A DNA stretch of 64,000 bases from an uncultured Holophagaceae bacterium (lineage in GTDB: Bacteria > Acidobacteriota > Holophagae > Holophagales > Holophagaceae). Shown one piece after another: positions 40,003 to 43,894 of this stretch. The notes beneath the pieces are model-generated. The model saw nothing but the letters and a program-made list of their open reading frames with translations, had not been told where the DNA came from and did not search any database. The stretch's first letter is position 1. Each line of letters starts with the position of its first letter. Location: contig CAVPLE010000149.1 of assembly GCA_963705865.1 (NCBI GenBank), positions 6,402 through 70,401 on the forward strand, in the 5' to 3' direction. A program made the position numbers and the translations under genes.

Positions 40003-41412
40003 ATGGACGCCCAAGAATTCCGCCGCCTCGGTTACCAGCTCGTGGATTGGATCGCGGACTACCGCGAAAACCTCGAGCGCCTGCCTGTGATGAGCCGGGT
40101 GCAACCTGGCGAGATCCGCGCCGCCTTCCCGGACCATCCGCCCCAGCACGGGGGCCGCGTGGCCCAGGCCCTGGCGGCTCTGGAGCGGGACGTGCTGCCC
40201 GGCATCACCCACTGGAACCATCCATCCTTTTTCGCCTACTTCCCCAGCAACACCAGCTACAGCTCGATCCTCGGCGACCTTGCCGCCTCGGGCCTGGGCG
40301 CCCAGGGCATGAGCTGGCAGACCAGCCCCGCCGCCACCGAGGTCGAAGAGGTCGTCATGGACTGGCTGCGCCAGATGGTGGGCCTGAGTCCCGCCTTCAC
40401 CGGCGTCATCCACGACACCGCCAGCACCGCCACCTTCACGGCTCTGCTCTGCGCCCGGGAGAAGGTCTCGGACTACGCGCAGAACACCGAGGGCCTCCAG
40501 AGCGGCGAGGCACCCCTGGTGGTCTACGCCTCGGACCAGGCCCACAGCTCCATCGAGAAGGCGGCCCTGCTGGCGGGCTTCGGCCGCAGCTACCTGCGGC
40601 TCATCCCCACGGATGAGCATCACGCCATCCGCCTGGACCTGCTGCAGGCGGCCATCGAGAAGGATGTCGCGATCGGCCTGCGCCCCTGCGCCATCGTCGG
40701 CGCCGTGGGCACCACGGCCACCACGGCCCTGGACCCCCTGCCGGCTCTGGCGGACCTCGGGGAGAAGCACGGGATGTGGCTCCACGTGGACGCGGCCCTG
40801 GCGGGCACGGCCATGGTGCTGCCCGAGTGCCGCTGGATGTGGGAGGGCATCGAGCGGGCCGACAGCCTGGTGTTCAACCCCCACAAGTGGATGGGCGTGG
40901 GCTTCGACCTCAGCGCCTACTACGTGCGGGATCCCCAGCACCTCATCCGGGTCATGAGCACCAATCCCAGCTACCTGCGCACGGCCCAGGATGGCCAGGT
41001 GAGCAACTTCCGCGACTGGCACATCCAGCTGGGCCGCCGCTTCCGGGCCCTCAAGTTGTGGTTCTACCTCATGGACGTGGGCGTGGAAGGCCTCCAGGCC
41101 CGCATCCGCCGCGACCTGGCGAACGCCCAGTGGCTCAAGGACCAGGTGGACGCCGCCCCAGAGTGGGAGCGCCTCGCCCCGGTGCCCCTCCAGACCGTGT
41201 GCCTTCGCCATCGGCAGCCGGGCCTCGGCGAGACCGCCCTCGCCATCCACAACCTGGAGATCGCCCGCCGCATCAACGAAGGCGGCAAGGCCTACCTCAC
41301 GCCCTCCATGCTCAAGGGAAAACAGATCCTCCGCGTGAGCATCGGCGCCGAGACCACGGAGCTCAGGCATGTCGAGGCGCTCTGGGAGGCTCTGAAGCAG
41401 GCGGCAAGTTGA
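40003..41412 (+). CDS. Group II PLP-dependent (aromatic L-amino-acid/DOPA-type) decarboxylase
   Basis: PGITHWNHP, SPAATEVE, HSSIEKA, HVDAA, FNPHKW, GRRFRALKLW. Confidence 0.92.
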   Translation: MDAQEFRRLGYQLVDWIADYRENLERLPVMSRVQPGEIRAAFPDHPPQHGGRVAQALAALERDVLPGITHWNHPSFFAYFPSNTSYSSILGDLAASGLGAQGMSWQTSPAATEVEEVVMDWLRQMVGLSPAFTGVIHDTASTATFTALLCAREKVSDYAQNTEGLQSGEAPLVVYASDQAHSSIEKAALLAGFGRSYLRLIPTDEHHAIRLDLLQAAIEKDVAIGLRPCAIVGAVGTTATTALDPLPALADLGEKHGMWLHVDAALAGTAMVLPECRWMWEGIERADSLVFNPHKWMGVGFDLSAYYVRDPQHLIRVMSTNPSYLRTAQDGQVSNFRDWHIQLGRRFRALKLWFYLMDVGVEGLQARIRRDLANAQWLKDQVDAAPEWERLAPVPLQTVCLRHRQPGLGETALAIHNLEIARRINEGGKAYLTPSMLKGKQILRVSIGAETTELRHVEALWEALKQAAS

Positions 41413-41426
41413 TCTGCCATTCCCGG

Positions 41427-41455
41427 TTGCATCCTCCAGTCCGCTTCGGCACACT
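41427..41455 (+). promoter_or_regulatory. Putative sigma70 promoter of the pro leader
   Basis: TTGCAT-N17-CACACT, ending 9 nt before the leader ATG. Confidence 0.45.
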
Positions 41456-41464
41456 TGGCAGACC

Positions 41465-41536
41465 ATGATTCCTGTCGCGACCCTCAACCCGATCCCCAGC
41501 CAGCCCACCCCCGGTGCGCCGGTGGGAGGGGTCTGA
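41465..41536 (+). CDS. Putative Pro-rich leader peptide MIPVATLNPIPSQPTPGAPVGGV
   Basis: 23 codons with 6 Pro, directly upstream of an attenuator and proB. Confidence 0.65.
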   Translation: MIPVATLNPIPSQPTPGAPVGGV

Positions 41537-41565
41537 GCCCGTCGCCAAGCCGATCCGCTCACCTC

Positions 41566-41600
41566 ACCCCCGGTGCCCACCAGCCCGGGGGTTTTTCTTT
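41566..41600 (+). terminator. Attenuator terminator upstream of proB
   Basis: ACCCCCGG/CCGGGGGT stem followed by TTTTCTTT, 11 nt before the proB ATG. Confidence 0.8.
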
Positions 41601-41611
41601 CGGCAGTTCCC

Positions 41612-42460
41612 ATGACCCAAAAATCGGAAGCTTCTCTCGGCCGGGCGAACCTCTCCAGGGCGAAACGCATCGTGCTGAAGCTCGGCACACAGGTCGTGGT
41701 GGATACCGAAGGCAGGCCGGCCCTGAGCCGCCTGTACGGCCTGATGGAAACCGTGGCCGCCCTCCACCGCCGGGGGGCGCAACCCGTGCTGGTGTCTTCG
41801 GGCGCGGTGGGCCTTGGGGCCCGGCAGCTCGGCATCAAGCCCGAAGGCCTGTCGCAGAAACAGGCCTGCGCCGCGGCCGGGCAGGGCCAGCTCATGTCCA
41901 TCTACCAGGAGGGCTTCGCCCGCCTGGGCCTGTGCGCGGCCCAGGTGCTGCTCACCGAGGACGACTTCACGGATCCCCTCCGCCACGGCAACCTCCGGCG
42001 CACGCTGGAGACCTTGCTGGAACTGGGGGCGATCCCCGTGCTCAACGAGAACGACACGGTCTCCACCCTGGAGCTGGAGCGCCCTTCTCCAGGTCGCAAG
42101 CCTATCTTCAGCGACAACGACCATCTGTCGGCCCTGGTGGCCGCGCATCTCGAAGCCGACCTCCTCGTCCTCCTCTCGGACGTCACCGCCCTCCACACGC
42201 GGAACCCGGGCCTGCACGCGGACGCGGCCCCCCTGGCGGAAATCCCGTTCGGTGCGGATCTCCAGGTCACCCTCGAAGGCACCTCGGGTCGTGGCCGGGG
42301 TGGCATGGTCAGCAAAGTGGCGGCGGCCCGGGCCGCCACCCGCGCCGGAGTACCCGTGGTGCTGGCATCGGGCCTGGCCATCGGCGTGCTCGATCAGATC
42401 CTCGCCGGCGAACCCATCGGCACCCTCTTCCTCGCCGGCCCCAGGGGAGTCCCGTCATGA
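41612..42460 (+). CDS. proB: Glutamate 5-kinase (no PUA domain)
   Basis: IVLKLGT, VSSGAV, AAGQ, NENDTV, DNDHLSALVA, GRGGMVSK. Confidence 0.93.
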   Translation: MTQKSEASLGRANLSRAKRIVLKLGTQVVVDTEGRPALSRLYGLMETVAALHRRGAQPVLVSSGAVGLGARQLGIKPEGLSQKQACAAAGQGQLMSIYQEGFARLGLCAAQVLLTEDDFTDPLRHGNLRRTLETLLELGAIPVLNENDTVSTLELERPSPGRKPIFSDNDHLSALVAAHLEADLLVLLSDVTALHTRNPGLHADAAPLAEIPFGADLQVTLEGTSGRGRGGMVSKVAAARAATRAGVPVVLASGLAIGVLDQILAGEPIGTLFLAGPRGVPS

Positions 42461-43773
42461 GCGAAGCATCCTTGAGCCCCCTCCAGATCCAGGCCATGGC
42501 CCAGGCCGCCCGGGACGCGTCGCGGCGCCTGGCGACCACTTCTTCGGGGCTTCGATCGGCGGTGCTCCTGCGGCTGGCGGACCTCCTGGAAGCCCAGGCG
42601 CCCGCCCTTCTCGCGACCAACGCGGAAGATGTCGCCGCCGTCGGGAACACCCTGCCGCCCGCCACCCTCCAGCGGCTCAAGCTCGACGGCGCGAAGCTGG
42701 CGGCCATGGCCCAGGGGGTCCGCGCCGTGGCGGCCCTGCCCGACCCCCTCCACCGGGTCCAGCTGCGCCGGCTGCTGGATGACGGCCTCGAACTCACCCG
42801 CGTCGCCTGTCCCCTGGGCGTGCTTTGCGTCGTGTTCGAAGCACGGCCGGATGCTCTGATCCAGATCAGCGCCCTGGCCCTCAAGAGTGGCAACGCCGTG
42901 TTGCTCAAGGGCGGCAGCGAGGCCCGCCATTCCAACACCGCGCTGCTGGCCCTGGTCCGGCAGGCGCTGGCGGAGGAGGGGCTGCCGGAGGAGGCGGTCC
43001 AGGGCCTGCCGGATCGCGAGGCCGTCACGGCCCTGCTGTTGCGTCCCGACCTGGTGGATCTGGTGATCCCCCGCGGGTCCAGGGAGCTGGTGCAGAACCT
43101 CCAGGCCGCCACCCGGATTCCCGTGCTGGGACATGCCGACGGCATCTGCCACATGTACCTCGACGAGGCCGCGGCCACCGCCATGGCTGTGGCTCTGGTC
43201 CGGGACGCGAAGCTGCAGTACCCGGCTGCCTGCAACGCGGTGGAGACGGTCCTCATCCACCGCCGGGCCGCGGCCCGCCTGCTGCCGGCCTTGGCGGAGG
43301 ATCTCGTCCCGCGGGGCGCGGAACTGCGCGGCTGCCCCGCCTGTCTGGAGATCGTGCCCTCCCTCGGCAAGGCCACCGAGGCGGATTGGGACGCCGAGTA
43401 CGGCGCCCCCATCCTGGCCCTGAAGGTGGTGGCGGATCTCGACGGGGCCCTGGCCCACATTCGCGCCCACGGCAGCGGCCACACGGAAGCCATCGTGACC
43501 GAGGACCACGCGGCGGCCGCCCGCTTCCTGGCCGAGGTCGATGCGGCGGGCGTGTTCCACAACGCCTCCACCCGCTTCGCCGACGGCTACCGGTACGGGT
43601 TCGGCGCCGAGGTGGGCATCAGCACCGGGCGCATCCATGCCCGCGGGCCCGTCGGGCTCGAAGGCCTGCTCAGCTACCGGTACCTCCTCCTGGGCCATGG
43701 ACAGTGCGTGGAGGACTACGCCGGGCCTGCCGCCCGGCCGTTCAGGCATCTTGATTTCACCACCGAGTCATAA
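42457..43773 (+). CDS. proA: Gamma-glutamyl phosphate reductase
   Basis: [49 protein letters not shown]. Confidence 0.95.
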
Positions 43774-43894
43774 CTATCAGTTATTGATATATAACGTTCT
43801 ATAACTTGAGCCCATGACTTGGACTGGTAATCTTAACCAATGCTTGTCGCCCCCGGGTTGCCGCAGGGGCGACATTTTCGTATCGGGAGGATCC

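Follow-up and report, generated by a model that had tools for sequence, protein, structure and literature searches.

The classical leader-peptide attenuators, represented in Proteobacteria by trpL, hisL, pheL, leuL, thrL and ilvL, combine a short open reading frame (ORF) holding codons for the end product with alternative RNA pairings of the 1:2, 2:3 and 3:4 type and a terminator placed before the first structural gene. Attenuators with trp, leu and ilv leaders have also been described in Actinobacteria (PMC1262725). We found the same layout ahead of proB and proA (proBA) in a 64,000-nucleotide (nt) stretch of an uncultured Holophagaceae bacterium (contig CAVPLE010000149.1), hereafter the window. 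The anatomy of this leader, its conservation, its alternative pairings and the match between its codons and the downstream genes indicate that it is very likely a ribosome-mediated transcription attenuator of proBA that reads the supply of Pro-tRNA(Pro). We further consider it likely that the family Holophagaceae holds a family-wide set of related, probably leaderless attenuators, specific for Pro (proBA and proC), Phe or Phe/Tyr (pheA and the 3-deoxy-D-arabino-heptulosonate 7-phosphate (DAHP) synthase gene), Asn (asnB) and Ile (ilvA). If so, the Pro and Asn leaders would have no described predecessor among ribosome-mediated attenuators of proline and asparagine biosynthesis, and the set as a whole would be the first in its phylum.

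The attenuation mechanism itself is known, and what is new here is the Pro specificity, the occurrence in Acidobacteriota and the probably leaderless start. As in the classical systems, a ribosome at the stop codon would mask segment 2, and the sensing positions tend to use rare codons for the cognate amino acid. Unlike them, the leader is specific for Pro, its targets are proBA and proC, its host belongs to Acidobacteriota, its regulatory codons are few and alternating (P-x-P) rather than in a run, and it matches no Rfam leader. Compared with enterobacterial attenuators it also lacks a Shine-Dalgarno sequence and has its ATG 9 nt after the -10 element, which we regard as a variant and not as another mechanism. 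An Rfam cmscan of positions 40800-42200, with E values up to 10, returned two chance hits far below gathering scores and neither a leader family (Trp_leader, His_leader, Leu_leader, Thr_leader, Phe_leader and others) nor a T-box.

Short ORFs with Pro codons are known from Salmonella, where mgtL (four Pro codons) and mgtP (three in a row) lie in the mgtA and mgtCBR leaders (PMC3641672). There, as we propose here, a low level of charged tRNA(Pro) stalls the ribosome, refolds the RNA and raises downstream transcription, whereas the genes controlled are those of a Mg2+ transporter and of virulence, the ORFs are led by a Shine-Dalgarno sequence and the leaders are long and respond to multiple signals; neither peptide nor RNA is related to ours in sequence or structure. 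The initial annotation of the locus knew of no described Pro-leader-peptide attenuator; for proBA and proC we found none either, and the known examples, mgtL and mgtP, act on other genes. Our survey of the literature, of incomplete coverage and thus absence of evidence, turned up neither a Pro leader peptide ahead of proBA or proC nor any leader-peptide attenuator in Acidobacteria.

The proline genes of Bacillus subtilis are controlled differently: PMC9245794 (citing Brill et al. 2011) reports T-box control of proBA and of the reductase gene proI, in agreement with what the initial annotation stated for Bacillus. The two systems share a regulon (a glutamate kinase/reductase operon and a pyrroline-5-carboxylate (P5C) reductase gene), the charging of tRNA(Pro) as signal and the opposition of terminator and antiterminator, but the T-box RNA binds uncharged tRNA and uses neither ORF nor ribosome, and no T-box was matched here. 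Outside Firmicutes, which use the T-box, little is documented on how transcription of the proline synthesis genes is controlled. In the present case proBA and the P5C reductase gene are apparently controlled by the ribosome, which would represent convergent evolution on tRNA(Pro) charging and would extend leader-peptide attenuation to Acidobacteriota, a dominant but little-studied soil phylum. Leaderless starts have a precedent in mycobacteria, where, according to a preprint (bioRxiv 10.1101/834739), leaderless polycysteine short ORFs are cysteine-responsive attenuators. They resemble the proBA leader in starting at the transcript 5' end, in being rich in cognate codons and in preceding genes for that amino acid, and they differ in phylum and amino acid; the leaderless start proposed here is deduced from sequence.

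Conservation and predicted switching of the proBA leader

The leader is about 135 nt long, 72 nt of which are ORF (Table 1). The initial annotation had proposed a promoter, a 23-codon ORF with six Pro codons and an 8-bp stem with a U-tract before proB, and all of these are present: TTGCAT and CACACT are separated by 17 nt, the ATG follows the -10-like hexamer by 9 nt without a Shine-Dalgarno sequence, Pro occupies codons 3, 9, 11, 14, 16 and 19, and the terminator arms (ACCCCCGG, 41566-41573, and CCGGGGGT, 41585-41592) are 100% complementary and followed by TTTTTCTTT. The pairing elements that it named were located as described (CCCACC at 41504-41509 in segment 1, GGTGGG at 41521-41526 in segment 2 and CCCACC at 41576-41581 in segment 3), and the ACCCCCGGTGC repeat that it saw in segments 1 and 3 is real and wider, extending to 17 nt at 88% identity as direct repeat D1 of our repeat finder (41501-41517 versus 41560-41576). 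The same finder returned inverted repeat I3, in which 41518-41526 is complementary to 41576-41584. In so C-rich a stretch, six Pro among 23 codons could arise by chance, and support for the ORF comes from conservation. A consensus promoter and terminator scanner detected neither the leader promoter nor its terminator, a negative that is uninformative because the hairpin loop measures 11 nt and the -10 element is weak.

The order of events that we infer, from transcription start through ORF translation and ribosome stall to the proline response, is as follows. Transcription would begin a few bases after CACACT, placing the RNA 5' end no more than about 3 nt from the leader AUG, and a ribosome would initiate on the ORF without a Shine-Dalgarno sequence. 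The transcript that carries the ORF into translation is probably leaderless or nearly so, since that sequence is missing and the distance from hexamer to ATG is fixed at 6-10 nt in the leader and its paralogs. With Pro-tRNA plentiful, the ribosome would reach the UGA at 41534-41536 and cover segment 2, so that the 3:4 terminator would form and RNA polymerase would halt at the U-run about 12 nt before proB. With Pro-tRNA scarce, it would wait with Pro9, Pro11 or Pro14 in the A site and cover segment 1; segment 2, left free, would then form a long 2:3 antiterminator helix with segment 3, a near copy of segment 1, and proBA would be transcribed. RNA that is not being translated, transcripts running through from the decarboxylase gene upstream among them, would adopt the 1:2 and 3:4 pairings and terminate.

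We compared 34 distinct leader sequences from 17 genus genomes and 29 named contigs, with ProB identities of 72-100%. Promoter, leader ORF, terminator and spacing are kept in all 34 of these distinct proB upstream regions of Geothrix and Holophagaceae. The promoter takes the form TTGCxx-N17/18-CA(C/G)A(C/A)T, with a -35 element of the TTGC(A/G)(T/C) type in nearly all, and CACACT, CAGACT or CACAAT is followed by the leader ATG after exactly 9 nt in 33 leaders and after 8 nt in the remaining one. A CCCCCG...CGGGGG hairpin with a T-run is likewise universal, at least 6 of 9 positions in the T-run being T, and proB starts 8-17 nt beyond it. The gene upstream of the leader varies among loci, the element lying 1.3-2.7 kb from the decarboxylase gene in several genomes, so the leader belongs to proB. 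The same short ProB subfamily occurs without the leader in Melainabacteria and in alphaproteobacterial relatives (Litorimonas, Robiginitomaculum and similar), where proB directly adjoins its upstream gene; the leader was therefore not co-inherited with the short ProB type.

Within the ORF, the initial annotation's expectation that Pro codons and frame would be conserved among relatives was borne out. The ORF has 21-23 codons in all 34 leaders and changes length by 3 or 6 nt only, while the spacer from stop to terminator (57-67 nt) comes in nine different lengths; the stop is kept as TGA or TAG, with a change from TGA to TAG in two lineages. Among the 23-codon leaders, Pro11 is present in 25/25 and Pro9 in 24/25, and the first two bases of these codons are near invariant (entropy 0-0.24) with about 1 bit at the third. 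Judged by its triplet indels, its retained stop and this base pattern, the ORF evolves as a coding frame. Third-position variability over codons 2-16 as a whole is not raised (entropies of 0.77, 0.65 and 0.78 for bases 1, 2 and 3), the coding pattern of entropy being confined to codon 13 and the Pro codons; these bases are probably also under constraint from RNA pairing. Pairing itself is well kept: 98% of the terminator stem cells are paired over the 34 sequences, one pair alternating between GC (17) and AU (14) in a compensatory manner, and the outer helix of the hairpin formed by segments 1 and 2 is 87% paired. Of the Pro codons in the Pro leaders, 32% are CCT, a rare codon that accounts for 7.6% genome-wide (1149 long ORFs). 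This is reminiscent of classical leaders such as the leu leader, which favour rare cognate codons.

Fold energies were compared with those of dinucleotide shuffles. The terminator reaches -19.7 to -22 kcal/mol (z -3.3 to -3.9) and the 1:2 hairpin, in which segments 1 and 2 pair in the minimum-free-energy fold, -27.4 kcal/mol (z -1.7). At -38.8 kcal/mol (z -2.7), the 2:3 antiterminator, counted together with the hairpin inside it, is more stable than the terminator (about -20). We then mimicked the ribosome by holding 28 nt single-stranded (-15 to +12 around the A site) in a transcript ended before the terminator 3' arm. With the A site at codons 2-14 of the window leader, the terminator 5' arm is predicted to pair upstream with a probability of 0.99-1.00, falling to 0.68 at codon 15, 0.41 at codon 16 and about 0.25 for codon 17 onwards (0.23 at the stop itself); the value without a ribosome is 0.32. 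The difference between codon 11 and the stop averages 0.52 over the 34 leaders and 0.01 in dinucleotide shuffles. These footprint folds support, in the window and in the 34 relatives, the trp/his-type logic proposed in the initial annotation, the 5' arm being sequestered at codons 2-14 and freed at the stop. Its suggestion that stalling at Pro codons causes read-through holds in the model for Pro9, Pro11 and Pro14, because the 5' arm is predicted to be sequestered with the A site at codons 2-14, but not for Pro16 and Pro19, which lie inside segment 2 and outside the read-through positions.

In the stalled-ribosome fold of the window leader, segment 2 pairs with 41562-41581. The stalled folds share an architecture in which a stop-spanning hairpin is enclosed by the pairing of the last ORF codons with the terminator 5' arm and loop, and most relatives have a hairpin across the stop codon equivalent to the central TGAGC...GCTCA. 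Partners from the same leader form stabler pairs than partners swapped between species, both for segments 2 and 3 (p ~0.014) and for segments 1 and 2 (p ~0.006); the control pairing of segments 1 and 3 shows no such effect of own over swapped partners. By this comparison of sequences, the lineage-specific leader segments co-vary.

Two further features of the leader region were noted. Like the repeat in segments 1 and 3, a second direct repeat (CAACCCGATCC, 41485-41495, and CAAGCCGATCC, 41546-41556) has its copies about 60 nt apart, and this equal spacing suggests that both segments derive from duplication of a block of about 33 nt. A hairpin at 41413-41462, in which the stop region of the decarboxylase gene would pair with the promoter region, was dropped as it is not conserved in relatives.

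Related leaders before other amino acid genes

A covariance model of the 34 proB leaders (R1), searched in the same genomes and in other Holophagaceae, returned weaker full-length matches elsewhere in the same genomes beyond the proB leaders. The genome of the window carries such leaders before proC (MILIPVVHPRPSTLSAGGSRTTS), pheA (MTASRSFFFSFRTSGARVGGV) and ilvA (MFRSGSASIPAAIAIIWSREGA), the proC leader being found independently of R1 as well, and a separate scan for terminators with small ORFs added one before the DAHP synthase gene (MTPRFHTYYWFPHTGRAWHGEGPA). The proC leader has TATATT ending 7 nt before its ATG and shares the 13-mer CCCGCGCCCTAGC with the proBA leader; three of the four Ile codons in the ilvA leader of this genome are the rare ATT. 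Sister leaders in general have TAnnnT-type hexamers 6-10 nt before the ATG. Leaders were detected in other Geothrix and in ten further genera, making at least 11 Holophagaceae genera in all. In those other genera the proB and proC leaders diverge in sequence and keep alternating Pro (SPFPFPPS, APSPCPLP, NPAPSPRPS, APSPLPSPRPP). Further genomes have Phe/Tyr-rich leaders before class II DAHP synthase genes and Phe-rich leaders before pheA, and Asn-rich leaders with terminators (NNRNNN, NPNPNP, NRNFNN) precede asnB, which encodes glutamine-hydrolysing asparagine synthetase. We know of no described Asn leader-peptide attenuator.

Codons were counted over positions 5-17 of 68 distinct leaders in six gene classes. 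The mean number of Pro codons is 3.5 in proBA leaders and 3.8 in proC leaders, and 0.4-1.6 in the non-Pro classes; pheA leaders average 3.1 Phe, DAHP synthase leaders 3.6 Phe and 1.6 Tyr, asnB leaders 3.4 Asn and ilvA leaders 4 Ile. Because the enriched codon matches the downstream gene across classes, the Pro codons, and not a particular peptide, appear to be the sensor. We regard this codon-to-gene match as the decisive evidence that the sequences offer, of the kind used to recognise classical attenuators by comparative genomics.

The importance of the proBA leader grows with its place among family-wide sister attenuators. Leaders for Pro, Phe, Phe/Tyr, Asn and Ile on one scaffold provide a comparative set for specificity swapping and for the question of how few regulatory codons suffice if these are non-adjacent and rare. 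For annotation, Geothrix genomes would benefit from having these small ORFs and terminators labelled as regulatory leaders, and a leader with cognate codons aids function assignment, as where a proC-like paralog that replaces proBA also has a Pro leader.

R1 gave no match in two other sampled families of the class (f2 and f3), and the seven proB loci of family f3 are heterogeneous. In a genome of f3 (L020, reverse complement, ~1238-1395), a 32-codon ORF (...SRPSRRPRPQARRWEA) and a strong intrinsic terminator lie upstream of a distant proB (42% identity), and GGGAAG at the ORF end can pair with CTTCCC in the terminator 5' arm. Judged by its sequence, this single instance may be an independent Pro attenuator.

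Counter-evidence and rival explanations

Several observations weigh against a Pro-tRNA-sensing attenuator. Public RNA runs included none holding the window sequence, and three metatranscriptomes weakly matching the Geothrix fermentans locus gave scattered proB and proA fragments of relatives, with none over the leader and no transcript ends. The near-invariant Pro codons number only two and are not adjacent, and part of the Pro enrichment may be structural, CCN codons suiting a C-rich segment 1; in addition, some Asn leaders hold 3-5 Pro. The 13-mer shared by the proBA and proC leaders is conserved at the nucleotide level beyond what codon sensing needs. For roughly 8 of the 34 relatives the fold model forms the antiterminator with no ribosome present, so that their logic there reduces to a terminating ribosome masking the antiterminator, and for the proC leader of the genome under study it predicts only weak switching. 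Finally, the relatives are not independent, and statistics across them overstate the case.

Conservation beyond codon sensing would suit an arrest peptide, in which the nascent chain (N-P-R-P-S-H/Q) senses a small molecule such as free proline instead of charged tRNA. TnaC responds to tryptophan and SpeFL to ornithine in this way, through stalling in the exit tunnel, and within Geothrix conservation of the P-R-P-S core, and of the 13 nt encoding it, extends from the proBA leaders to proC leaders of two types. We nevertheless consider such a peptide quite unlikely, as the proC leaders of other genera lack R-P-S and keep several alternating Pro codons, the Phe, Asn, Ile and Tyr codons of the sister leaders match their downstream genes as codon sensing would have it, and a stall at abundant proline would have the wrong sign for a biosynthetic operon, because a stall at codons 9-14 is predicted to give read-through. 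It is improbable, too, that the Pro codons serve to gauge elongation factor P (EF-P) activity or the overall pace of translation in place of proline supply: most leaders, including that of the window (P-I-P), have no consecutive Pro codons, and the genes controlled are exactly those of the proline pathway (proBA and proC), even though about 8 of the 34 leaders have N-P-P-P, a classical EF-P-dependent motif, at codons 8-11, and EF-P is reported (PMC5021804) to affect transcription-translation coupling at leader ORFs. EF-P dependence could also modulate a proline sensor and is compatible with attenuation by Pro-tRNA supply.

The remaining two explanations give the ORF no role. Were the hairpin and T-run a mere constitutive terminator insulating the upstream decarboxylase gene, with the small ORF incidental, one could point to the lack of any other terminator between the decarboxylase stop (41412) and the hairpin and to an intergenic region as GC-rich as coding sequence. 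This is very improbable. The element accompanies proB behind unrelated genes, and several genomes place it 1.3-2.7 kb from the decarboxylase gene; a conserved promoter of its own stands 9 nt before the ATG, the ORF keeps its frame through indels, and genomes without proBA, in which the decarboxylase gene is directly followed by the aminotransferase gene, lack the element. The least probable of all is a T-box-like, riboswitch-like or protein-binding RNA. The T-box control of B. subtilis proBA and proI (PMC9245794) is its precedent, yet no Rfam family was matched up to E 10 besides chance hits, 72 of about 135 nt of the leader are ORF, and neither frame-preserving indels nor a codon-to-gene match across paralogs would be expected of a non-coding sensor. 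Attenuation by a ribosome reading Pro codons remains the reading that we prefer.

Genes and neighbourhood of the leader

The host organism belongs to the genus Geothrix (Holophagaceae, Acidobacteriota), its closest named relative by ProB being G. fuzhouensis (96%). The same leader occurs in a cultured strain, Geothrix fermentans DSM 14018 (L039, identical to L004). By the NCBIfam cut-offs applied to their sequences, the identities of proB and proA are genuine: proB scores 251.8 bits against TIGR01027 (cut-off 186), matching profile positions 1-254 of 363, and proA 518 bits against NF001221 (cut-off 289). ProB consists of the kinase domain only, without a PUA domain. Read from the sequence, the start of proA overlaps the proB stop via ATGA. 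The gene for the P5C reductase, proC, lies at a separate genome site behind its own Pro leader.

Table 1. Features of the proBA leader and its genes in the window, with sister leaders located in other sequences.
Feature	Position	Strand	Remarks
-35-like hexamer TTGCAT	41427..41432	+	putative function, from sequence
-10-like hexamer CACACT	41450..41455	+	17-nt spacer from TTGCAT; weak -10
Leader ORF, 23 codons, MIPVATLNPIPSQPTPGAPVGGV	41465..41536	+	ATG 41465, TGA 41534-41536
Regulatory codons (putative)	41489..41506	+	Pro9 41489-41491, Pro11 41495-41497, Pro14 41504-41506
Segment 1, C-rich 5' arm of ORF hairpin	41484..41517	+	includes repeat copy 41501-41517 and CCCACC 41504-41509
Segment 2, G-rich, last six ORF codons and stop	41518..41536	+	GGTGGG 41521-41526; alternative partners segment 1 and segment 3
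Central hairpin TGAGC...GCTCA	41534..41561	+	enclosed by antiterminator in 2:3 fold
Segment 3, second repeat copy, terminator 5' arm and loop	41560..41581	+	CCCACC 41576-41581
Terminator hairpin (3:4)	41566..41592	+	8-bp GC stem and inner 2 bp; loop 11 nt
T-run TTTTTCTTT	41592..41600	+	ends 12 nt before proB ATG
Pyridoxal 5'-phosphate (PLP)-dependent decarboxylase gene	40003-41412
Intergenic gap, 199 nt			between PLP-dependent decarboxylase gene and proB
proB, glutamate 5-kinase	41612..42460	+	ATG at 41612; Pfam AA_kinase, TIGR01027
proA, glutamate-5-semialdehyde dehydrogenase	42457..43773	+	NF001221
proC leader MILIPVVHPRPSTLSAGGSRTTS	L087 1501-1630 (G000 contig C157:3372-3501)	-	with terminator, 13 nt before proC
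pheA leader MTASRSFFFSFRTSGARVGGV, Phe-rich	L088 1501-1631	+	before chorismate mutase/prephenate dehydratase gene (pheA)
ilvA leader MFRSGSASIPAAIAIIWSREGA, Ile-rich	L089 1501-1631	-	before threonine dehydratase gene (ilvA)
DAHP synthase leader MTPRFHTYYWFPHTGRAWHGEGPA, Phe/Tyr/Trp/His-rich	G000 contig C107, T-run ~17184 (reverse-complement coordinates)	-	independent terminator-plus-small-ORF scan
Asn leaders before asnB	L103, L104, L108, L109, L119, L125, L126, L129		other Holophagaceae genomes

The slot between the decarboxylase and aminotransferase genes is conserved (window 41413-43894 versus L155-L159), and proBA with its leader behaves as a separable cassette within it. Three Geothrix genomes (G002, G044 and G060) have nothing in the slot, and in two others (G001 and G024) it contains a Pro leader (MSALHFQTPRPSLPPPGAPAGEGLS) and a proC-like paralog 55% identical to proC. 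We considered and rejected the idea that the decarboxylase, proB, proA, aminotransferase and GCS-M20 genes form one new pathway, as the proBA cassette is separable, the flanking genes staying constant where it is absent or replaced, and as proBA has its own promoter and leader.

The gap between proA and the aminotransferase gene (43774-43894) contains an AT-rich stretch with a TATCA...TGATA inverted repeat and a hairpin (GTCGCCCC...GGGGCGAC, ~43847-43873) followed by ATTTTCGTATCGG. The aminotransferase gene is preceded by a strong Shine-Dalgarno sequence, GGGAGGA, unlike the leader ORF. Genomes without proBA retain this hairpin through compensatory changes (GTCGTCCT...AGGACGAC), and it is therefore part of the aminotransferase gene's own 5' region.

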